Assembly (NCBI RefSeq): GCF_003260205.1
Contig: NZ_QERF01000001.1
Location: 553,985-617,984, forward strand
Direction: 5' to 3'
Length of the DNA stretch: 64,000 nt
Origin: Winogradskyella tangerina
GTDB lineage: Bacteria > Bacteroidota > Bacteroidia > Flavobacteriales > Flavobacteriaceae
The notes under the pieces are model-generated. The model did no database searches. It was not told the origin of the DNA and saw only the letters and a program-made list of their open reading frames with translations. Positions 51,547 to 64,000 of the stretch are shown here, piece after piece. Each line of letters starts with the position of its first letter. Position 1 is the stretch's first letter. The position numbers and the translations under genes are program-made.

Positions 51547-52082
51547 ACTATAAACTTCGACCTAGGAGAAGGGCTTCGGAAATGGCTTCGTAGATTTTTG
51601 CCTACAAAATACCAACCTTCTCCATGCATGTTTCCCAACACACGGTATGTTGAGCTACCGAACGCTTTCGGGTCGGGTACCTCTAATACTGCAACAAGCT
51701 CCGCAAGGCTGGATGACCTACGCGTAACCTATTACTACAACTTTTCCTATTGATGTCTCCATCTCAAGCCTCATTAGCATTGGCTATAAATTCTAACCAG
51801 TCTCGGCGGTCGCCCCTGACTAATCGTAACCTACGTTTGTTGCTTGCTTACCTGCACTATTTTCCGAAGAAAACAGTCTCCACCTACAGTGTCTGTAAGC
51901 AGATTTATCCTTGTTACCAAGTTTATCTGAGGACGATAAGCCGCCCCATCTTACCTTAACCGAAATTAAGGTTTGATGATTTTTTTAGTATGAAATCCGT
52001 TTTTCAGAATTTCATAATATTTCAATGATCGTCATTTAAAACAAACAGACCGATAACTGTATGTTTAAATGTTTTTACTTTA

Positions 52083-52151
52083 ATGTTTATCAAGATTCGA
52101 ACTTGATCCTAGCGGATATACCTCTCGTGCGAGCCATTACACTATAAACAT
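52083..52151 (-). pseudogene. tRNA-like element D, 69 nt, canonical order but with a degenerate anticodon arm
   Basis: The acceptor ATGTTTA/TAAACAT is perfectly paired. The T-arm TCAAG-TTCGAAT-CTTGA is perfect. It has a D-arm-like GTG-TAATGGCTCG-CAC. The 20 nt between the D-arm and T-arm do not fold into an anticodon stem. Confidence 0.4.
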
Positions 52152-52208
52152 CTCAGTAAACAGAGACAAACCAGGTTTGCCTCTGCTTTTGGTCTCCTTT
52201 CTTTTTAT

Positions 52209-54635: not shown

Positions 54636-56003
54636 ATGAAGAAAACTACGTTTAAAAAGGTTCATCTTATTGCCCTTTTCTTTATTTGCCTGTTTTCAAT
54701 AAGTTTTAGTACAGCACAAGAAACTGAACAGAATGAGGTTCCTGCTTGTATTATGCCAGTACCAACTGATGTCAACAGAGTATACATTCCACCAAGAGAT
54801 GCCGTGCAAGAACGACTTGCTAGTCGTGGCACAAGCTGTTCAAATATTATCGTGAACTACATTAATTTCCCGGTAAACCCATCAAACCCGTCAGAACCAG
54901 GTCCGGAGCAAGTAGCATTTCAATTTGCAGTAGATATATGGGAAACCTTATTAGATTCACCTGTCCCAATCAGGATAGATGCCAACTGGGTTGGTTTAGG
55001 CGCTGGAGTATTAGGTAGTGCGGCACCTGCATATTTTGCTACCGTACCAGGTGGTGCTACAAGTACACTTTATGCCGGTGCTTTGGCAGAATCTATTGTG
55101 GGTTTTGAGCTCAACGGCTTTAATTCTACTGATATTGTTTGTAATTTCAACTCTCAATTTAGTAATTGGTATTTCGGAACAGATGGTAATCCTGCATTTT
55201 TTGAAGTGGATTTTGTGTCTGTAGTATTGCACGAATTAGGTCATGGGCTCGGTGTTGCTGGCTTTGGTATTGAATTGAACGACATGGGATATATTAGAAG
55301 AGATATCAGTGGACAAACTGTTTCAGCAACGTCTAGTTTCCCAAGTATTTGGGATCAGTTCATTGATTCTGAAGATATATTTGCAAATCCGGTTAGTATT
55401 CTCGACGAATCTCAATTTCCAGATCCATCAGCAATAATGTTAGCACAATTTGAAAGTGATAACCTTACCTGTAACAGTCCAATTGCCGTGGCCCAAAATG
55501 GAGGTGTGCCACCAGCTACTCAAGGTGGTATAGAGACTCCTCCTGGATCAGGTAATTTTGAGTTCAGACAAGGTTCTAGTTATAGTCACTGGGACGAGGA
55601 CACCTTCAATGGTACGCCAACAGCACTAATGACGCCATTTTTATCTAACGGTGAGGCCATTCACGATCCTGGTAATGTAACACTCGGCTTTATGGAAGAT
55701 ATGGGCTGGGTATTGTGCCAAGGTTCGTTGAGTACGGAAGATTTTACAGCTAATGAGGTTAAGATCAGTCCAAACCCATTTAGATCACGAATAGATATCT
55801 CTATTGCGAATGGCTTTAATGATACTTATAAAGTAGATTTGATTGATATAAATGGTAGAAATGTACTATCACAAACAAAAACGGCCATTAACGGAGCTTT
55901 AGAAATAGATCGCTTAGAAAACTTAGGTGATGGTCTTTATTTTATAACTATTACCAATCAAAACTCTAATCAGAGTGTAACTACAAAATTGATAAAGAAT
56001 TAA
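54636..56003 (+). CDS. secreted zinc metalloprotease-like protein (HEXXH) with a T9SS C-terminal sorting domain
   Basis: It has a signal peptide, HELGHGLG (HEXXH), and a C-terminal T9SS type-A CTD (KISPNPFRSRIDISIA...GLYFITITNQNSNQSVTTKLIKN). Confidence 0.7.
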   Translation: MKKTTFKKVHLIALFFICLFSISFSTAQETEQNEVPACIMPVPTDVNRVYIPPRDAVQERLASRGTSCSNIIVNYINFPVNPSNPSEPGPEQVAFQFAVDIWETLLDSPVPIRIDANWVGLGAGVLGSAAPAYFATVPGGATSTLYAGALAESIVGFELNGFNSTDIVCNFNSQFSNWYFGTDGNPAFFEVDFVSVVLHELGHGLGVAGFGIELNDMGYIRRDISGQTVSATSSFPSIWDQFIDSEDIFANPVSILDESQFPDPSAIMLAQFESDNLTCNSPIAVAQNGGVPPATQGGIETPPGSGNFEFRQGSSYSHWDEDTFNGTPTALMTPFLSNGEAIHDPGNVTLGFMEDMGWVLCQGSLSTEDFTANEVKISPNPFRSRIDISIANGFNDTYKVDLIDINGRNVLSQTKTAINGALEIDRLENLGDGLYFITITNQNSNQSVTTKLIKN

Positions 56004-56103
56004 GCACAGACTTAATTTCGAATAAACAAAAGAACTTAGCACACATTGTCTAAGTTCTTTTTTTTTTGCGTAAGGATTTTGAACTTTTTCAGACCTAAGA
56101 TTC

Positions 56104-56946
56104 ATGACACACCATTTTAAGGAATTTTCTACCGGAGCACTTTTCAATATAGGAAACACAGAAGATCTTGAATCTTTCAATCAACCAAAGCAGGTTAATC
56201 TTTACACCTTTATATGGGCACAATCACAACCTGTAGAATTGATCATAGACAGCATTCCGATTACGCTTCAACCCAATCATATAATTGCCTTAACTCCTAT
56301 TCAATATTTACAATTTGTTAGTGGTGACGATGTCATAGTATATCAGTTCAACAGAGAGTTCTATTGTATTAAAGATCACGATCAGGAAGTGAGTTGTGTG
56401 GGTATGCTTTTCTTCGGAAATACGAATATCCCGATCATCAATTTGGATGAAAAAGAGCAATATAAATTTAAGATCTTACACGAAGTCTTTATCGATGAGT
56501 TAGAAACAAAAGATAATATTCAGGCTGAAATGCTTCGGATGCTTATGGCCAGATTCATCATAAAAAGCACGCGCCTTTTGAAGGCCAAAGAAGGCATTAT
56601 AGAAACGCCCAAAAGTTCTAAAGTAGATCTACTGCGTTCTTTCAACTTTTTAGTAGAGCAACATTTTAAGGAAGAACACAGTGTTACTTTTTATGCCGAA
56701 AAACTATTCAAATCGCCAAAAACCCTTTCTAATAATTTTGCAAAATTAAATCGTAGTCCACTTCAAATTATTCATCAACGTATTGTGTTAGAAGCTAAAC
56801 GTCTTTTAACATATACAGATAAAAGCGCCAAGGAAATTGCCTATGAAGTCGGATTTGATGATGCCTCGCACCTCAGTAGATTATTCAAAAAATACACTTC
56901 GCAGTCTCCTTCAGAATTCAAAAGAGGCATAAATATCTTAAGTTAG
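56104..56946 (+). CDS. AraC-family transcriptional regulator
   Basis: It has an N-terminal cupin-like ligand domain and a C-terminal double HTH (TFYAEKLFKSPKTLSNNFAK...IAYEVGFDDASHLSRLFKKYT). Confidence 0.8.
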   Translation: MTHHFKEFSTGALFNIGNTEDLESFNQPKQVNLYTFIWAQSQPVELIIDSIPITLQPNHIIALTPIQYLQFVSGDDVIVYQFNREFYCIKDHDQEVSCVGMLFFGNTNIPIINLDEKEQYKFKILHEVFIDELETKDNIQAEMLRMLMARFIIKSTRLLKAKEGIIETPKSSKVDLLRSFNFLVEQHFKEEHSVTFYAEKLFKSPKTLSNNFAKLNRSPLQIIHQRIVLEAKRLLTYTDKSAKEIAYEVGFDDASHLSRLFKKYTSQSPSEFKRGINILS

Positions 56947-56953
56947 GAAATAT

Positions 56954-56982
56954 TGACAAGCCCAAGGGCAAATTCTTCATTC
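56954..56982. promoter_or_regulatory. repeat motif copy 1 (TGACAAGCCCAAGGGCAAATTCTTCATTC) containing the palindrome GCCCAAGGGC
   Basis: It shares 22 of 29 positions with a second copy at 57201-57229. It lies between the AraC gene and the AhpD-like gene. Confidence 0.4.
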
Positions 56983-57200
56983 TTTAGCATCGGTATTGCG
57001 CGCATCTTTGCAGTGTAATATTAAAACAACAAAACGATGAAATTAAAGAACATATCTATTTTCAATCTTATTGAAATATTCAGAAGGAGTCCAAAGCGTA
57101 TTGTAAGCACAATTATTCCGAAAACACATTGTGAGCAAAAACACATTCACGATTACTATTGTGACGCTGAAAAACCACATGTGAACGCCTAAGGAAAAAA

Positions 57201-57229
57201 TGACAAGCCCTAGGGAATAATTAGCATTC
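57201..57229. promoter_or_regulatory. repeat motif copy 2 (TGACAAGCCCTAGGGAATAATTAGCATTC)
   Basis: It is a direct repeat of the 56954 motif and lies about 120 bp upstream of the AhpD-like gene start. Confidence 0.4.
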
Positions 57230-57346
57230 TATTTGATCCCTTTCTGTCGCAACTTTGTACCAACAAAAATTTAAAGCTGAATAAGCATCAGCAACAAATA
57301 AATATTAACAAACCCTGAAATCAATTCAGAATAAAAACAAAAAATT

Positions 57347-57895
57347 ATGAACACATTTAATGTACCAACCAGAGAAAACGTAAGTGCTAACAATCAAGCA
57401 ATTTTCGATAACCTAAATAAAGCACTTGGATTTGTGCCAAATCTATATGCAACTTATGCACATAGTGACACGGCCTTAGAAAACTATTTGAACTTTGCCA
57501 ATGCAAAAACGTCGTTGTCTGCTAAAGAAAAGGAAGTTGTAAACTTAGCGGTTAGCCAAGTCAATGATTGTATCTACTGTTTATCTGCGCATACTGCAAT
57601 TGGAAAAATGAACGGTTTTACCGATGAGCAGATCTTAGAATTAAGAGCTGGATATTCTTCAGTAAACACCAAACTAGACGCTTTAGCAAGATTAGCTAAA
57701 AACGTTACTGAAAACAGAGGCCGCACGGACGAAGCTGTATTAGAGAATTTCTTTAACGCCGGTTATACAAAAGCTAATTTAATCGATACGATTTCTTTAG
57801 TAGGTGATAAAACGATCTCTAACTATATACACAGTACAACACAGGTTCCTGTTGACTTCCCTGTAGCACAACCGCTAGAACCACAAACCGTATAA
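57347..57895 (+). CDS. carboxymuconolactone decarboxylase-family (AhpD-like) protein
   Basis: It has the CxxxH-like motif VNDCIYCLSAHT and AhpD-like all-helical repeats. Confidence 0.75.
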   Translation: MNTFNVPTRENVSANNQAIFDNLNKALGFVPNLYATYAHSDTALENYLNFANAKTSLSAKEKEVVNLAVSQVNDCIYCLSAHTAIGKMNGFTDEQILELRAGYSSVNTKLDALARLAKNVTENRGRTDEAVLENFFNAGYTKANLIDTISLVGDKTISNYIHSTTQVPVDFPVAQPLEPQTV

Positions 57896-58072
57896 ATATT
57901 AAAAGCACGGTCTTAGGGCACCGTGCTCCAAATAGTTAATGTAAGGAGCGCTTTGAATATAATCCCAAACAAACTATCTCACTTACAAAACTTGTGACTT
58001 AAACCTATTAATTAGCCAGATTTAAATTACTTATAATCAAATAAATAAACAATTTTTTTAACATTTAATATC

Positions 58073-58465
58073 ATGAAAAAAATAATTTCAATTCTAGTTA
58101 TCGCATTAAGTTTCACTTTAGCGGGTAACGCACAAGACAGCATGAAAAAAGATGCTATGATGAAAGACTCTAAAGCAACTGTGGTGTCTTTAGAACAAAC
58201 AAAAGGGGAGTTTACCCAAAAAACCTTAACCTTAGCTGAAGGCGATTACATTTTCGAAATTGCTAACAATAATGTCGGTCACCAGGTAGGGTTTGTATTG
58301 GCGCCAAAATCTAACCCAGATGCGCATATCAAAACAGCTTATGTTACAAAGGCTGTAGACAACAACTCAAAAGAAAGTACTAATGTTACCACATTGGCCA
58401 AAGGTGAGTATGTGTATTTCTGTCCGTTGAACCCAACACCACAATACACGCTTATCGTAGAGTAG
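58073..58465 (+). CDS. small secreted hypothetical protein
   Basis: It has a signal peptide (ISILVIALSFTLAGNAQ), a Met/Lys-rich linker, and a beta-rich C-terminus. Confidence 0.45.
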   Translation: MKKIISILVIALSFTLAGNAQDSMKKDAMMKDSKATVVSLEQTKGEFTQKTLTLAEGDYIFEIANNNVGHQVGFVLAPKSNPDAHIKTAYVTKAVDNNSKESTNVTTLAKGEYVYFCPLNPTPQYTLIVE

Positions 58466-58485
58466 TTAATTTAAATTTTATAAAC

Positions 58486-58521
58486 GAAAAAGCGCGGCTC
58501 ATCAGAGCCGCGCTTTTTTTA
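58486..58521. terminator. strong bidirectional rho-independent terminator
   Basis: AGCGCGGCTC-atca-GAGCCGCGCT is a 10-bp GC-rich stem flanked by A5 and T7. Confidence 0.8.
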
Positions 58522-58534
58522 TGGGTCTAAGGTT

Positions 58535-58867
58535 CTACTTCCCTAGCATCAACAATTCGTTACAAACGACTTCCGTGGTGTAGCGTTTAATACCGTCTTT
58601 ATCTTCCCAACTGCGTGTGGTTAGTTTGCCTTCAATGGCTACTTCTTTGCCTTTGGTTACAAACTTTTCAATTATTTCTGCTGTTTTGCCCCAAGCTACA
58701 ATATTGTGCCATTGGGTATCTGTTACTTTTTCTCCTTTAGCATTTTTATAGCTTTCATTTGTAGCTATTGAAAACTTGGCGAGGATTTTACCAGATTCGA
58801 GGTTAATGATTTCGGGATCATTTCCGAGGTGACCAATTAACTGTACTTTGTTTCTTAATGTACTCAT
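58535..58867 (-). CDS. ssb: single-stranded DNA-binding protein (short OB-fold SSB)
   Basis: NKVQLIGHLGNDPE...TDWHNIVAWGKTAE...VAIEGKLTTRSWEDKDG forms an SSB OB-fold. It lacks the acidic C-terminal tail. Confidence 0.75.
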   Translation of the reverse strand: MSTLRNKVQLIGHLGNDPEIINLESGKILAKFSIATNESYKNAKGEKVTDTQWHNIVAWGKTAEIIEKFVTKGKEVAIEGKLTTRSWEDKDGIKRYTTEVVCNELLMLGK

Positions 58868-59037
58868 GTGTTTTAAATTTTAGTGATTAAACAGTCAATA
58901 CTATCGTGTAAATGCTAAAGCCATTAGCACAACAACGACGAGACAAAGATGAGATGGCCAACCTTAATTAATCGGTAGTTACCTATTTAAATTCGTTTGT
59001 AAGTATTTGTAGTCGTTTGTAAATAACTATTGCTTTG

Positions 59038-59045
59038 TGGATAGG
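59038..59045. repeat. target-site duplication, left copy (TGGATAGG)
   Basis: It is identical to the 8-mer at 63432-63439 and lies directly outside the terminal inverted repeat. Confidence 0.7.
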
Positions 59046-59233
59046 GGCAGCTATATACAATAAGGGACAAATTAATCTAGTAATTTTACAAAACGAAAAA
59101 TGTCGTTTTTTTTAATGTGAAGTACGCAATTCATCTGACCGTCTTTCCCTTGCCACCGATTCAGCAATTCGAGATTGGGCATCTTGCCTACCATTCAAGG
59201 TATAACCAGACTATTGCAGTCAAAGAGCGTGGA

Positions 59234-59365
59234 CTATTCGTCCTTTTTGTCCTCTTTAGGTTTAGGGACAGATATTTTTAGAACGTCGTCGAGCGTGCCA
59301 TCTATTGACAGTTTTTCCTCGTACTTTTTAGCACGTTCCTTTTTGTTTTTTTCTTTCTTAGCCAT
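59234..59365 (-). CDS. candidate 43-aa Lys/Glu-rich micro-protein (cargo; stop-start coupled TAAATG with the protease gene)
   Basis: MAKKEKNKKERAKKYEEKLSIDGTLDDVLKISVPKPKEDKKDE. Its ATG follows directly after the protease TAA. It is below the ORF-track length cut-off. Confidence 0.3.
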   Translation of the reverse strand: MAKKEKNKKERAKKYEEKLSIDGTLDDVLKISVPKPKEDKKDE

Positions 59366-59791
59366 TTACCATTCAAGGGTTATTTCTTTTTTGACATAAT
59401 CTAAAGTTATCTTGAACTTTTCAAGAAACATATTAGTGCCTAGAATTGGAGGCAAAGAATTAGACATGATAGTATTCCCTACCACTTCTAGAGTTCTTAA
59501 AACCTTTTTTCGAGTACTGTCTAGTATTTCTATTTTAAAAGGATGTACATAAGTATCTATTTCAGTACCAGAAATACCTCTTGTGCCTTTTTCCTTTTTA
59601 CTTTCATTATCCAGTTTATGTCCAACATTCATTGTAATCATACTTGGAAAAGTACAACAATCTGCACCTGTATCTATCATTGCCAAAGTATGAATTGCCT
59701 TATTTGTATTATAATTTATGATTCTTATGGGTATTTTAGGTCTTAAAATACCATTTTCGCCTTTTCGAAATGGATAAGTGTATTTATTCAA
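59366..59791 (-). CDS. retropepsin-like (clan AA) aspartic peptidase domain protein (cargo)
   Basis: It has the MIDTGADCCTF (D-T-G-A) catalytic motif with downstream hydrophobic-Gly (ILGTNMF). It is 141 aa. Confidence 0.55.
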   Translation of the reverse strand: MNKYTYPFRKGENGILRPKIPIRIINYNTNKAIHTLAMIDTGADCCTFPSMITMNVGHKLDNESKKEKGTRGISGTEIDTYVHPFKIEILDSTRKKVLRTLEVVGNTIMSNSLPPILGTNMFLEKFKITLDYVKKEITLEW

Positions 59792-59970
59792 AAGACAAAA
59801 TTATAATCAACATTTGTTTCAAAATCTAGAATAAAGTCCTCTCCAGATTCTTCTGCCTTTTTTAAAACTTCTTCACCATCAAAACTTTCATAAATAACCT
59901 TGTTAGTTTCTATGTTAATAGCTCTAATTGTAATTAAATTTTCTTGTTTAGATTTTTTGTCATTAGACAT
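59788..59970 (-). CDS. small acidic hypothetical protein (cargo; ATGA overlap with the protease gene)
   Basis: It is a 60-aa ORF, translationally coupled to the downstream gene, with a 13-bp perfect palindrome upstream. Confidence 0.35.
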   Translation of the reverse strand: MSNDKKSKQENLITIRAINIETNKVIYESFDGEEVLKKAEESGEDFILDFETNVDYNFVF

Positions 59971-59987
59971 TGCTCTCGGTTTTAAAA

Positions 59988-60022
59988 AGTGTGCAAAAGT
60001 AACTAAGAATATGTTACTTTTG
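59988..60022. promoter_or_regulatory. perfect 13-bp inverted repeat GTGCAAAAGTAAC-N9-GTTACTTTTGCAC (transposase terminator and/or operator of the cargo operon)
   Basis: It lies between the transposase stop (60069) and the start of the 60-aa ORF (59970). On the minus strand it is followed by ACTTTTT. Confidence 0.45.
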
Positions 60023-60068
60023 CACTAAAGTATGTAATTTAATGATAAATACAATCTACTTTAACTTA

Positions 60069-61010
60069 TTAATATACAGTACTTATTAGTTTCTTATAAC
60101 TTAAAGTACTTTCACTATCTACTAAAAACTTTTCAAATCTTTCTTGACTAGATAAACTTCTAGTATTAAATCTAGCTGCAAATTCATCTAGATAACGTTC
60201 TAAATGCTTTTCGCTAACTTGGTGGTAAATTCCATACAAACCACGCTTTAGTACACTCCAAAAGTTCTCAATCGTATTGGTATGGACTTGTCCATCCACA
60301 TAAATATTCAAAGCGTGTTTTACACTTTCATGGGTGTAATACTTTTTTAGATGATTATATACTGGCGCTTCGTCAGAATAAATCGTTGATCCTTGCGGAA
60401 CGTGTCTCGCTATAAATGCTCCCATATTGCGCAACTCCGAATTAGGGACGTGTTTTAAAACTACATTACCGTTTCGCTCAATGATACCAACAACCGTTTT
60501 CTTAGGCGTATAAGGTTTACCCTCATTGGTAAAGTTTTTATCCTCTAATGAACGGCGTTTGTTAATATGCTTATTCTTTTCACGACCACCAATATAGGCT
60601 TCATCAACTTCTACCATTTTATCCTTTCCCAATACCTGTGGTGCTTTGTCCTTTAGCATTTCTCTAATACGGTGCAAAACAAACCAAGCCGTCTTTTGAG
60701 TAATACCTAAATCTAAAGCTAATTGTACCGAACTGATACCCTTTTTATGAGTTGTGGCTAAGAATATAGCTGCAAACCATATTCTTAACGAGATTTTAGA
60801 GCCATGAAATATAGTACCGACCTTTACAGTAAACTTTTTATAACATTCGCTATTGGCGCATTTATGACCCCTATTGGTTTTATATGTACGCTCACTACCA
60901 CAATGAGGGCAAACAGGTGTTCCGTTCCAACGGATCTGCTCGTAATACTCTATGCAAGTGTTTTCGTCCTTAAAGTAATCTAAAAGCTGTGGTAGAGACT
61001 TGAAATTCAT
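60069..61010 (-). CDS. IS1595-family transposase (ISXO2-like DDE)
   Basis: It has an N-terminal zinc ribbon (CPHCGSERTYKT...HKCANSECYKKF) and a DDE_Tnp_IS1595 core (YIGG...IYSDEAPVYN...ENFWS). Confidence 0.9.
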   Translation of the reverse strand: MNFKSLPQLLDYFKDENTCIEYYEQIRWNGTPVCPHCGSERTYKTNRGHKCANSECYKKFTVKVGTIFHGSKISLRIWFAAIFLATTHKKGISSVQLALDLGITQKTAWFVLHRIREMLKDKAPQVLGKDKMVEVDEAYIGGREKNKHINKRRSLEDKNFTNEGKPYTPKKTVVGIIERNGNVVLKHVPNSELRNMGAFIARHVPQGSTIYSDEAPVYNHLKKYYTHESVKHALNIYVDGQVHTNTIENFWSVLKRGLYGIYHQVSEKHLERYLDEFAARFNTRSLSSQERFEKFLVDSESTLSYKKLISTVY

Positions 61011-61078
61011 TTTATTTTAGGTGTTTGTTGGGACAAATATAATGAAAATATATTAATTGTTGATATTATGTTCACAAA

Positions 61079-61162
61079 AAGTTTGGTAATTTTTCCAAAC
61101 TTTTATGTAAAAGCCTATTTTTGAGTAGTATAATTAAAATTAAGTTTGGTAATTTTTCCAAA
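61079..61162. promoter_or_regulatory. divergent promoter/operator region with two exact 21-bp direct repeats AAGTTTGGTAATTTTTCCAAA (61079-61099 and 61142-61162)
   Basis: Each repeat has inverted ends TTTGG...CCAAA. The two copies are 63 bp apart (six helical turns). The second abuts the ATG of the XRE/ImmA gene. Confidence 0.55.
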
Positions 61163-61164
61163 AC

Positions 61165-62427
61165 ATGAATAGTAACAATAAACATAAAGATGTAGATAAA
61201 TTGCTTAGAGGTCTATTTAATGAGAACACTAAGCTTCAGAACTTTGAACTGATAGAGTTATTTGAACAGCGATTGGCCGATCTTTCAATAACGAAAAATC
61301 AAGCTTGTATTATTTTGGATATTGAACACAAAACTTTGGATAGTGTATTAGATGGTACTTCAAAAAAAATAGATTTTCTAGGTATTTTAAAGCTTTCTTA
61401 CTTTTTAGATATACCTCATAATGATTTTATCGATAAGTACTTCGATTTAACTTTTAAAAACAACAATGAAGATATTGAAATAGTTAAAAAAAGAAGTTTC
61501 ATAGTTAAGAACTTTGATTTACCCCAGCTTAAAAAGTCTGGCTTTATTGACAGCATTAATGATTTTGATGATATAGAGATTAGGCTAAATCAATTTTTTG
61601 GCTATGATACGATATTCGAATTTGGTAAGAATAAATTTACGGCGGCACTAAGTTCAGGTTCAAGAAAAACCAATCAGAAAAGTTTTGACTTTTGGTCAGA
61701 AGCAGTATGTAAGAGTATAGATAAAACTCCTAATCCCCATAAGTATGATAGAGAAGGCTTAATTGAGTTTTTCCCAAGAATAAGAGCGTATTGCTTAGAC
61801 GTTGAAAAAGGATTGATAGCGGTAGCCCAAAAGCTTTTTACTTTGGGTGTCACTTTGATTATAGTTCCTAAATACAATACTGATTTACATTTAAGGGGAG
61901 CAACATTCGTAAGAAATGGCAAGCCCTGTATTGCACTGACAAAATACACTCAATTTTACCCTACCATTTGGTTTACCTTAATACATGAGTGCTACCATGT
62001 TTTGTATGATTGGGAAGTTATAAAAAAAGAGACTTTTCACTTTAGCATTGAGGTAGAAAACCAAGAGGATCAGAATAATTCCAATATTATTAATGGTTAT
62101 GAGATAAATGAAAGTGAAGCTAATTATTTTGCTCGTGAATATTTGTTTTCTAATGAAAAACTAAAATCTGTAACTCCTCTTATAAATGATAAATTGTTCA
62201 TTGAGAGATTTGCTAAAGAAAACCATGTACACCCAAGCTTTATATACAGCTTTTATTTATGGAATAATGGAAGTAAATCAAACTATGGTAAATTCAATAA
62301 GTATTTTCCAAAGGAAAGCTATGATAAACTTCTAAAGAATTTTAGTGTTTACGAGGAATCAAAACACTTACCTGTTAATGAACTTACAAAGAATAGAAAT
62401 AACAACCTTAATTATAATACCCTTTAG
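61165..62427 (+). CDS. XRE-type HTH fused to an ImmA/IrrE-family HEXXH metallopeptidase domain (cargo regulator)
   Basis: The N-terminal HTH is LSITKNQACIILDIEHKTLDSVLDG. Mid-protein is HECYH (HEXXH) within TLIHECYHVLYDWE. It is 420 aa. Confidence 0.6.
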   Translation: MNSNNKHKDVDKLLRGLFNENTKLQNFELIELFEQRLADLSITKNQACIILDIEHKTLDSVLDGTSKKIDFLGILKLSYFLDIPHNDFIDKYFDLTFKNNNEDIEIVKKRSFIVKNFDLPQLKKSGFIDSINDFDDIEIRLNQFFGYDTIFEFGKNKFTAALSSGSRKTNQKSFDFWSEAVCKSIDKTPNPHKYDREGLIEFFPRIRAYCLDVEKGLIAVAQKLFTLGVTLIIVPKYNTDLHLRGATFVRNGKPCIALTKYTQFYPTIWFTLIHECYHVLYDWEVIKKETFHFSIEVENQEDQNNSNIINGYEINESEANYFAREYLFSNEKLKSVTPLINDKLFIERFAKENHVHPSFIYSFYLWNNGSKSNYGKFNKYFPKESYDKLLKNFSVYEESKHLPVNELTKNRNNNLNYNTL

Positions 62428-62432
62428 CACTT

Positions 62433-63020
62433 ATGAAAGAGAAAAAATTAAAGAATGTAATCCAAGCAAACACAAAAGAGTTAAAGGAATTACAAAGAAA
62501 AGAGGAGATACAGACCCTCTTATTCAGAACGGAATCACTACGTCCCCAAAAGGACTATGATAAGGAGTTAGAAAAAATCCAACTCAGAAACGGAACAACA
62601 ACTTCCCTTAAAGAGATTAAAGATTTAATAAATGATATTCCTAGGGAACACGAATCTATGTTCCCTAACGAAAAACCGTTTTTCTCTTTAATGTTTTATT
62701 TAAACGAGTGGAACGATTTAAACCCTCATAACTTTATAAAACCACCAATCTGTGCTAAATGGATAAAACAATATATCTATGGGCGGTTTGATAGAGAAGT
62801 TTTACCTACTTTGTTGAAAAAGGAAAATCCAATAATAGCGGGTTATATTAAGAAATATAAATTGTTCCAGTTTTTAAATGATGATGGGCTGATGTTGCTA
62901 GAGGGTTATATTAATGATGCAATAGAGGTAATGAAAATATCTAAAAATTGGTATGATTTTGAATTAAAGTACACCAAGTTATACACTTTATCGGTACAAT
63001 TGAAGCTTAAACTGAAATAG
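62433..63020 (+). CDS. hypothetical protein (cargo, downstream of XRE/ImmA)
   Basis: It is 195 aa and Lys-rich with no recognisable motif. It lies 6 nt after the upstream stop. Confidence 0.4.
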   Translation: MKEKKLKNVIQANTKELKELQRKEEIQTLLFRTESLRPQKDYDKELEKIQLRNGTTTSLKEIKDLINDIPREHESMFPNEKPFFSLMFYLNEWNDLNPHNFIKPPICAKWIKQYIYGRFDREVLPTLLKKENPIIAGYIKKYKLFQFLNDDGLMLLEGYINDAIEVMKISKNWYDFELKYTKLYTLSVQLKLKLK

Positions 63021-63431
63021 TATGAAAACAATGATGTTTGTAATATAAATATTACTTTGATATACATCTTATCGAATAATTACGAACTTAAATAGATGGT
63101 AATGATATTAAGTAATATCTTTAAGTAGAAAACAAAAAAGCACCCAATAGGATGCTTAAAATACTCTCTCTGAGATAGACTGGAAAAGTGCAAATACACC
63201 GTTCAAAAGTGTGCCGTCTCTCATTAGGATAGGGCTTTTGACTTACAGTCGGAAAACGTCGGTACTCGCAATACTGACGTTTTTTCATTTATAAAAGTAG
63301 TCAAAATGACTACTATCGGCAAATATTTTCGATAAAATGATATCAATTTTAAGGGTTTGTAATATTATTCTTAAAATATTGATGCCATTTTTAGTTTTGA
63401 ACTATCTTGTCCCTTATTGTATATAGCTGCC

Positions 63432-63439
63432 TGGATAGG
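63432..63439. repeat. target-site duplication, right copy (TGGATAGG)
   Basis: It is identical to the 8-mer at 59038-59045. IS1595-family elements make 8-bp TSDs. Confidence 0.7.
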
Positions 63440-63518
63440 ATGATTTGTAGTAATTTTAGTTAAGAAACAACAGGTGCGTTTATTTGCTTGTTGGCGGTAA
63501 TTTAATAAAGGAATTAAA

Positions 63519-63839
63519 TTGATTGATAAGAGTACAATTCTGGAAGTTTTCGAGGACATCCGCCAAAATGGGGAATGGGATATTAATCGGGGATTACTTT
63601 ATGGTTATTTTTTTCTAGACGAAAATCGCCAAAAACTTAAAACTGTTGGGGATAACCTCAAAAAGAAAGGTTACACTTTTGTTGACATTTTCAAAGCGGA
63701 ATCGGAAGAAAATGAAAAAGCGGAAATGTACTATTTGCATATTGAAAAAGTTGAAATTCACTCAGTTGATTCCCTATTTGAAAGGAACTTAGAATTCTAC
63801 AACGTCGCTGAAAAATTTGGAATAAATTCATACGACTGA
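63519..63839 (+). CDS. RraB-like (regulator of ribonuclease activity B family) small protein
   Basis: It has tandem alpha/beta repeats ending with the ...EKFGINSYD motif (compare the RraB C-terminal G-x-YDGW). Confidence 0.45.
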   Translation: MIDKSTILEVFEDIRQNGEWDINRGLLYGYFFLDENRQKLKTVGDNLKKKGYTFVDIFKAESEENEKAEMYYLHIEKVEIHSVDSLFERNLEFYNVAEKFGINSYD

Positions 63840-63907
63840 TTTGATATCGGGGATGTGTATTAAAAAAACTACACACAACAAAGAACTGAGTTAAAAAACA
63901 AGTCTTT

Positions 63908-64000
63908 TTAGCTTAATCTAGATACATAATTTTCATCATAAGGTAATCCTGATTTTGCAATGGCAAATGCTTGTTTCAACAATTTGTTTGCTACTGCGAT
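63908..64000 (-). CDS. 3' end of a minus-strand CDS continuing beyond the window (unknown product)
   Basis: The frame is open to the window edge and ends ...ENYVSRLS*. Confidence 0.25.
   Translation of the reverse strand: MAVANKLLKQAFAIAKSGLPYDENYVSRLS

Follow-up and report, generated by a model that had tools for sequence, protein, structure and literature searches.

A two-gene operon at positions 61079–63020 of a 64,000-nucleotide stretch of the Winogradskyella tangerina genome (contig NZ_QERF01000001.1, positions 553,985 to 617,984 of the forward strand; hereafter the window) is the passenger operon of an intact 4,386-bp IS1595-family transposon that spans 59046–63431. The first gene encodes a 420-aa protein that joins an XRE-type helix-turn-helix (HTH) to an M78/ImmA-like zinc peptidase domain, and the second encodes a 195-aa P63C-domain protein. 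Database records for W. tangerina include exact matches to both products. Two dyad-symmetric sites lie upstream of the pair, in the interval that separates it from the divergently transcribed transposase gene. We lean, with modest confidence, towards reading this cassette as an autorepressed repressor–protease switch whose output is P63C. The coordinates of all features are collected in Table 1.

The structure provides clear boundaries for the element. Its 25-bp terminal inverted repeats are perfect reverse complements with no further copy in the window, and the 8-bp target duplication TGGATAGG directly abuts the outer end of both, which bears out the proposal of a first-pass annotation of this DNA that the cassette is carried on an insertion sequence (IS). 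The ends lie about 1 kb past the transposase stop and about 390 nt past the P63C gene; ends close to the transposase or just past P63C were considered and rejected, as a short-range inverted-repeat search gave nothing convincing. The order transposase, HTH-M78, P63C is common to the window and to two sister elements (L081 and L085) whose outer flanks differ, and in all three the unit is enclosed by perfect or near-perfect 25-bp inverted repeats of the form GGCAKCTATATAC-N5-GGGACAA. Because their target duplications differ, being (T)ATTGCAAT in L081 and CAACTATA in L085, the three look like separate insertions. Repeats homologous to those of the window are present in 73 metagenome contigs. With a DDE transposase bearing a zinc ribbon, inverted repeats, an 8-bp duplication and passenger genes inside, the element corresponds to a transporter IS (tIS), a concept that comes from the paper defining the IS1595 family (Siguier, Gagnevin and Chandler 2009), here as cited in PMC3129680.

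Relatives of the 420-aa protein were searched in representative genomes, one per species, and 308 were found, nearly all labelled Bacteroidota. From these, 80 loci were retained for comparison, with operator counts made on 79 non-redundant loci; the family alignment holds 41 members, and 36 relatives of the P63C protein were checked. The XRE-HTH protein with an HECYH motif described in the first-pass annotation is confirmed, with the zinc-binding motif at residues 274–278. H274, E275, H278 and E316 are invariant in the 41 family members, and from its position E316 is predicted to be the third zinc ligand. For the Peptidase_M78 family (PF06114), 20 of the 41 relatives reach E ≤ 0.01, the best value being 3.8e-7, and precomputed matches to PF06114 exist for several relatives; HTH_3 or HTH_26 is matched by 9–12 of the 41. 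The 420-aa protein alone gives no Pfam HTH match. As family members match where this single protein is borderline, we regard the HTH-M78 assignment as well supported at the level of the family.

The fold of the N-terminus agrees with this assignment, as it is recognised as the five-helix HTH typical of XRE and Cro/C1 proteins. A family profile matches the ICEBs1-type immunity repressor ImmR (8bny; the best PDB sequence match, over the N-terminal region) and the N-terminal domain of lambda cI, and the best structural matches of the HTH domain include ImmR, DdrO and CapH. The AlphaFold model of the 420-aa protein has a mean predicted local distance difference test (pLDDT) score of 85.6. For the protease domain there was no confident fold match to a solved M78 protease, the PDB match to CapP having E = 1, and the 420-aa protein alone found no match in the PDB; no publication was found for PDB entry 9vzy. 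A search of the phage collection returned no match for the HTH-M78 protein.

The 64-kb window contains exactly two copies of AAGTTTGGTAATTTTTCCAAA, at 61079–61099 and 61142–61162, giving a start-to-start distance of 63 bp ahead of the 420-aa gene, as had been reported. With up to 3 mismatches allowed there is no further copy in the window, 0.04 being expected by chance and two or more being seen in 0 of 100 shuffles. The inverted symmetry noted in the first-pass annotation is real, but the repeats are better described as dyad sites of about 24 bp than as 21-mers, and the proximal repeat, said to touch the start codon, lies immediately upstream of it and ends 2 nt before the ATG. When seven loci were aligned, with protein identity down to 58%, the distal palindrome was conserved in 7 of 7 as the sole strongly conserved block between diverging flanks, and in L003 it carries the symmetric change TTTAG/CTAAA.

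This arrangement is a property of the family. A repeated site (at least 13 of 16 positions matching, within the 170 nt upstream of the HTH-M78 gene) is present in 55 of 79 loci, and family sites are palindromes of the type xGTA-N4-TACx whose sequence varies by lineage. Among loci having the repeat, the spacing is 62–67 bp in 36 of 40 with a P63C partner and 52–53 bp in 8 of 11 with an alternative partner of about 165 aa; both correspond to whole helical turns, with ~63 bp equal to six. Additionally, the half-site sequence varies together with the residues that open the predicted recognition helix: E(H/N)KTLD is found with AAGTTT(G/A)G-N8, IEYR(A/T)L with TGTA-N4-TACA, Q(L/P)R with ATGCA-N4-TGCAT, and IETKSF with TTGGTA-N4-TACCAA. 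Across about 80 loci, the presence of two sites, their dyad symmetry and the way they vary with the recognition helix together support the first-pass suggestion that the repeats are operators.

The proximal site also coincides with promoter-like sequence. In 47 of 79 loci the 60 nt ahead of the start contain the motif TAnnTTTG, compared with 5.6% in shuffles; it is most often found at −35 to −26, where it overlaps the proximal site. A scan for sigma-70 promoters gave 9 sites against a shuffled mean of 13.4, and so small a number is in keeping with Bacteroidota promoters. The −7-like box TAAGTTTG inside the proximal repeat raises the alternative that the repeats are duplicated promoter elements, or else transposase-binding sites, and that the two genes, as chance cargo, are not regulated through them; such motifs are indeed abundant in AT-rich Bacteroidota intergenic DNA. 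However, the two-site layout is kept in loci that lack a transposase, the site sequence follows the lineage of the HTH protein and not that of the transposase, and the repeat is unlike the terminal repeats of the transposon. As the sites also have dyad symmetry with symmetric substitutions and a spacing fixed at whole helical turns, we consider this explanation highly improbable.

The downstream partner, which the first-pass annotation left as an unknown 195-aa protein, is encoded by the open reading frame (ORF) described there, but its domain is a known one. It matches P63C (PF10546) with E = 3.8e-8 and 34.3 bits against a cut-off of 26.1, and the same family is matched by 36 of 36 relatives. 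The synteny check suggested for this gene was positive, with a P63C homologue within a few nucleotides downstream of the HTH-M78 stop in 57 of 80 loci. At about 18 of the 80, an unrelated protein of about 165 aa takes the place of P63C behind the same regulator family (L017, L020, L023, L030, L031, L033, L038, L042, L043, L048, L056, L061, L066, L070–L072 and L074). This second family has the motif YYKGI...EEKN.FLTRG...G.RG.DSRMG and no Pfam match, and hhalign detected no homology between it and P63C (probability 4%). Searches with the 195-aa protein returned only noise from NCBIfam and no PDB sequence match, and a search of the literature on P63C or PF10546 found none. The protein is small and helical and probably binds nucleic acid.

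P63C genes occupy similar positions in other mobile elements. In Streptococcus phage Javan515 and a Brochothrix prophage, a P63C protein of about 295 aa is encoded between a repressor with HTH and Peptidase_S24 domains and an integrase, all on one strand. Like that of our cassette, whose repressor is predicted to be cleavable, the P63C gene of these lysogeny modules stands directly downstream, on the same strand, of a self-cleaving repressor; they differ from it in that the protease is of the S24 (LexA-like) type instead of M78, P63C has an extra N-terminal domain, and the phage carries a tyrosine integrase. In a Riemerella prophage the P63C gene adjoins an AntA/ANT antirepressor gene. In a Zobellia IS1595 element it overlaps the end of the transposase gene, in other IS1595 elements it lies behind a small Zn_ribbon_IS1595 protein divergent from the transposase, and P63C also adjoins IS1595 transposases alongside other regulators. 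P63C is thus repeatedly the gene directly under a mobile element's own regulator, which is a statement of its context and not of its function.

In the ImmR/ImmA system of ICEBs1, the DdrO/IrrE system of Deinococcus and the CapH/CapP system of the cyclic oligonucleotide-based antiphage signaling system (CBASS), an XRE-family repressor that acts on palindromic operators is inactivated by an M78 zinc protease upon a signal. CapP and CapH are reported to regulate immune operons, with DNA damage or single-stranded DNA as the trigger. We hypothesize that the HTH-M78 protein binds as a dimer to its two dyad-symmetric operators about 63 bp apart. Because the proximal operator would cover the −7 box and transcription start of the cassette promoter, the operon would repress itself; the distal operator would sit in the gap that separates this promoter from that of the divergent transposase. 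By analogy with the three systems, a cellular signal such as DNA damage, single-stranded DNA or phage infection would then activate the protease, which would cut the repressor either within the same chain or between subunits. Loss of the repressor would allow P63C to be expressed and possibly the transposase too, with the latter probable at least for compact elements. The effector would be P63C, and since it fills the same slot behind a cleavable repressor in prophages, its placement favors an exclusion, abortive-infection or toxin-like accessory role. The cassette departs from the three known systems in that each of these uses two proteins, whereas here a single 420-aa chain would serve both functions. 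Furthermore, CapH and CapP are encoded by separate repressor and protease genes upstream of a defence operon, an arrangement not seen here, and the PADLOC capP match of the 420-aa protein is weak (E = 0.0015).

Several observations weigh against this proposal. First, the 420-aa protein scores 21.4 bits with Peptidase_M78 against a cut-off of 22 (E = 2.2e-4), so that the M78/ImmA identity suggested in the first-pass annotation holds at the level of the family, while the protein itself falls just short. Second, the co-variation of recognition helix and operator fits what direct readout would predict but is confounded by shared descent. Third, the start of the distal site in the window is 68 nt away from the transposase ATG, which places the site some 38 nt upstream of the −7 box predicted for that gene. 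In compact IS1-type elements the corresponding distance is 19–35 nt; there the site must overlap the transposase core promoter, and it is only in these relatives that such an overlap is predicted. Fourth, about 70% of the related loci have no adjacent transposase; coupling of the cassette to transposition is not obligatory, and as these loci keep the gene pair, the cassette is not purely a transposition regulator. Lastly, PD-lambda-2B, the closest experimentally studied homologue of the 420-aa protein, from an E. coli anti-phage system, is itself toxic and more than a simple repressor (PMC9519451).

The comparison with PD-lambda-2 (Vassallo et al. 2022, PMC9519451) leads to a second explanation, namely that the pair is a toxin–antitoxin-like or abortive-infection defence cassette, with the HTH-M78 protein as its harmful part or sensor and P63C either neutralising that protein or serving as an accessory factor on which defence depends, while the transposon is a vehicle only. 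The best match of the 420-aa protein in the PADLOC defence library is PD-Lambda-2_B (PDLC03982), at E = 2.2e-20 and near full length (residues 103–391). Each is roughly 400 aa long and has an Xre-type HTH, a helical region and an ImmA/IrrE peptidase in that order, and in both systems a small accessory gene comes next in the operon. In E. coli, PD-lambda-2B is toxic when alone and the downstream gene C, which is described as related to a P4 phage antitoxin, is needed for defence, while the HigB-like gene A, located upstream, neutralises B (PMC9519451). In layout, the cassette also resembles type II toxin–antitoxin systems, with two closely linked genes, a first product of DNA-binding type and palindromes in the promoter, and the exchange of P63C for an unrelated ~165-aa gene resembles that of swappable toxins. 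The persistence of the pair without a transposase in most loci, also in a context resembling a conjugative element, and the defence-like look of other cargo in the transposon lineage (by eye only, one gene being NYN-like and another DUF3800-like) point the same way. Against this, our operon begins at the HTH-M78 gene with the divergent IS1595 transposase upstream, in place of a HigB-like gene A, and the downstream P63C protein has no PADLOC match at E ≤ 1, and so no sign of homology to component C, in a unit that lies within a transposon. With only component B represented, and no homologues of genes A and C, the cassette is not a PD-lambda-2 system, and we judge a defence role of this kind possible but rather unlikely.

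The third explanation is that the cassette is a dedicated transposition-control module, in which the transposase is kept silent by the repressor–protease for as long as no signal comes, and P63C binds DNA as an accessory factor of transposition. This is suggested by the position of the cassette, which stands divergent beside a transposase of either IS1 or IS1595, two families that are related yet distinct, at about 22 of 80 loci, with start codons 110–180 nt apart. An IS1-family transposase occupies the divergent upstream position at 17 of the 80. At no fewer than 11 of the 17 loci (both ends being readable in 11), GGTAGTGTCTCAGTTTGAA and its reverse complement mark the limits of the whole IS1-type unit, both ends co-vary in L025, L035 and L068, and perfect 8-bp duplications flank 9 of the 11 elements. 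An IS1595-type transposase is in the same position in L033 also, and a remnant of one in L032. The predicted overlap of the distal operator with the transposase core promoter in compact elements, and the P63C genes that overlap or closely trail IS1595 transposase genes in other elements, are likewise consistent with a function in transposition. However, most loci hold the pair without a transposase. In L082–L084 it adjoins conjugative-transfer genes, and DNA homology extends exactly to the former transposase start. P63C is also found beside tyrosine integrases in prophages. Moreover, neither gene is present in many elements that share the inverted repeats of the window element and likewise favor sites near ssb (described below), from which it follows that the cassette is dispensable for transposition and target choice. 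A dedicated transposition module therefore appears improbable to us.

If the repressor–protease switch works as we propose, it would bear on how transposons are controlled. The usual view of simple DDE transposons is one of self-control, exerted by the transposase or by a small inhibitor. In the IS1595 lineage described here, a phage-style repressor that is predicted to be cleavable, with phased operators, stands right beside the transposase promoter, and two transposase families have taken up the same cassette; these would be Bacteroidota transposons that a signal can induce. For P63C, which is widespread but all but absent from the literature, this would supply a context open to testing, as a protein expressed under a cleavable repressor in prophages and transposons. 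The pairs of operator and recognition helix also make up a natural series of matched repressor–operator specificities. As a speculative extension, to which we attach little probability, the HTH-M78/P63C cassette would be the transposon counterpart of the phage lysogeny switch: a cleavable repressor would silence IS1- and IS1595-type transposons, transposase and P63C would be inducible by DNA damage or phage attack, and P63C would be a 'repressor-slot' effector common to prophages and transposons. What distinguishes the element from a tIS as described is the HTH-M78/P63C passenger, its recurrence in IS1 and IS1595 elements and the phased operators beside the transposase promoter. Within a literature search of incomplete coverage that did not extend to ISfinder, we found no description of the cassette or of its presence in both IS1 and IS1595 elements, nor, in the same incomplete literature, of phased co-varying operators or of a link between P63C and a cleavable repressor; on regulators of tIS elements the search gave nothing but noise.

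Table 1 Features of the transposon and its HTH-M78/P63C cassette (window coordinates)
Feature	Coordinates	Strand	Basis or description
Left target-site duplication TGGATAGG	59038–59045	.	Same 8-mer at both repeat ends
Left terminal inverted repeat GGCAGCTATATACAATAAGGGACAA	59046–59070	+	Perfect 25-bp reverse complement of 63407–63431
141-aa cargo gene, retropepsin-like (clan AA aspartic protease-like)	59366–59791	-	TIGR03698 E = 5e-6, below its cut-off; RVP E = 0.021
60-aa ORF, variable cargo	59788–59970	-	ORF list; end overlaps start of 141-aa gene
IS1595-family DDE transposase, 313 aa, N-terminal zinc ribbon	60069–61010	-	DDE_Tnp_IS1595 E = 1.7e-39; Zn_ribbon_IS1595 E = 1.1e-9; NF033547 E = 4.6e-58
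Predicted Bacteroidetes-type transposase −7 box TATATTTG	61034–61041	-	Putative; TAnnTTT[GA], 31 nt from transposase ATG
Distal operator, palindrome AAGTTTGG-N8-CCAAACTT	61079–61102	.	Core is the 21-bp copy at 61079–61099
Predicted cassette promoter, −33 TTTG (61120–61123), −7 TAAGTTTG (61141–61148)	61120–61148	+	Read from sequence
Proximal operator, second exact 21-bp copy	61142–61162	.	Overlaps −7 box; ends 2 nt before ATG (61165)
420-aa repressor–protease fusion (HTH-M78)	61165–62427	+	XRE HTH ~25–95, helical linker, M78/ImmA-like ~215–350, helical C-terminal region
195-aa P63C-domain protein	62433–63020	+	PF10546; starts 5 nt past HTH-M78 stop
Conserved non-coding core of transposon backbone, 58 nt	63199–63256	+	Sequence conservation
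Terminator-like hairpin (CGTCGGTA / TACTGACG) then T run	63257–63285	+	Read from sequence
Right terminal inverted repeat	63407–63431	-	Pairs with 59046–59070
Right target-site duplication TGGATAGG	63432–63439	.	Identical to left copy

The remainder of the transposon consists of variable cargo and a conserved backbone. The sister elements L081 and L085 do not conserve the retropepsin-like 141-aa gene and have other genes at that position, and the neighboring 60-aa ORF had no family match in profile searches. The 3′ core is 87% identical to that of L085 across 98 nt, which is above the identity of the coding regions, and it occurs also in elements with different cargo. The window, L081 and L085 all keep the hairpin and T run that follow, with a stem sequence that differs among the three. 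A small protein encoded in the core was considered and rejected, as the reading frame is not kept between copies, and an Rfam scan of 56000–64000 gave no family for the core, with sub-threshold matches elsewhere only. The region 63199–63285 is a candidate for a small RNA or for a binding region of subterminal type. Separately, the sequence upstream of the transposase at 61030–61043 (GGGACAAATATAAT) resembles 59064–59077, which comprises the inner left repeat and neighboring bases (GGGACAAATTAATC); this likeness could reflect an extra transposase-binding site or chance.

Insertions of the IS1595 lineage seem to fall at one set position upstream of ssb. Where enough flanking sequence is available, 22 of 70 repeat ends sit 150–255 nt (median ~161) from an ssb start, and the ssb gene near these ends reads away from the element (58535–59045 in the window; L081, L085, L161 and L164; L088–L160 from metagenomes). 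The ssb-adjacent target duplications vary by genome, and because of these differences the insertions look independent. About 22 nt outside the transposon end there is a conserved motif, TTTGTAGTCGTTTGTAAA. P63C was considered as the selector of this target and rejected, as ssb-adjacent elements often lack it. In some cases exactly 8 bp separate an element end from a remnant or full end of another copy (L085 10116–10135 and L104 2232–2265), and further end pairs with this separation occur in L142 (3499–3532) and L143 (3740–3773). Such abutting ends suggest insertion beside an existing end, or tandem arrays.

In IS1-type elements, a conserved gene of 80–93 aa lies just inside the right inverted repeat, convergent with P63C, on the minus strand (L022 7917–8159, L025 7820–8062 and L068 7862–8143). 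Its product has no Pfam match and shares the motif MAKK.KLPAD.NKRAKSIVD...GGKARA..L...R.EIAKKAAAARW.

No tRNA was found near the transposon of the window. The first gene beyond its right end, at 63519–63839, encodes an RraB-like 106-aa protein (regulator of ribonuclease activity B; E = 2.6e-12). Elsewhere in the window, ARAGORN calls a tRNA-Tyr on the minus strand at 52081–52152 with the anticodon ATA, which is unusual for tyrosine.

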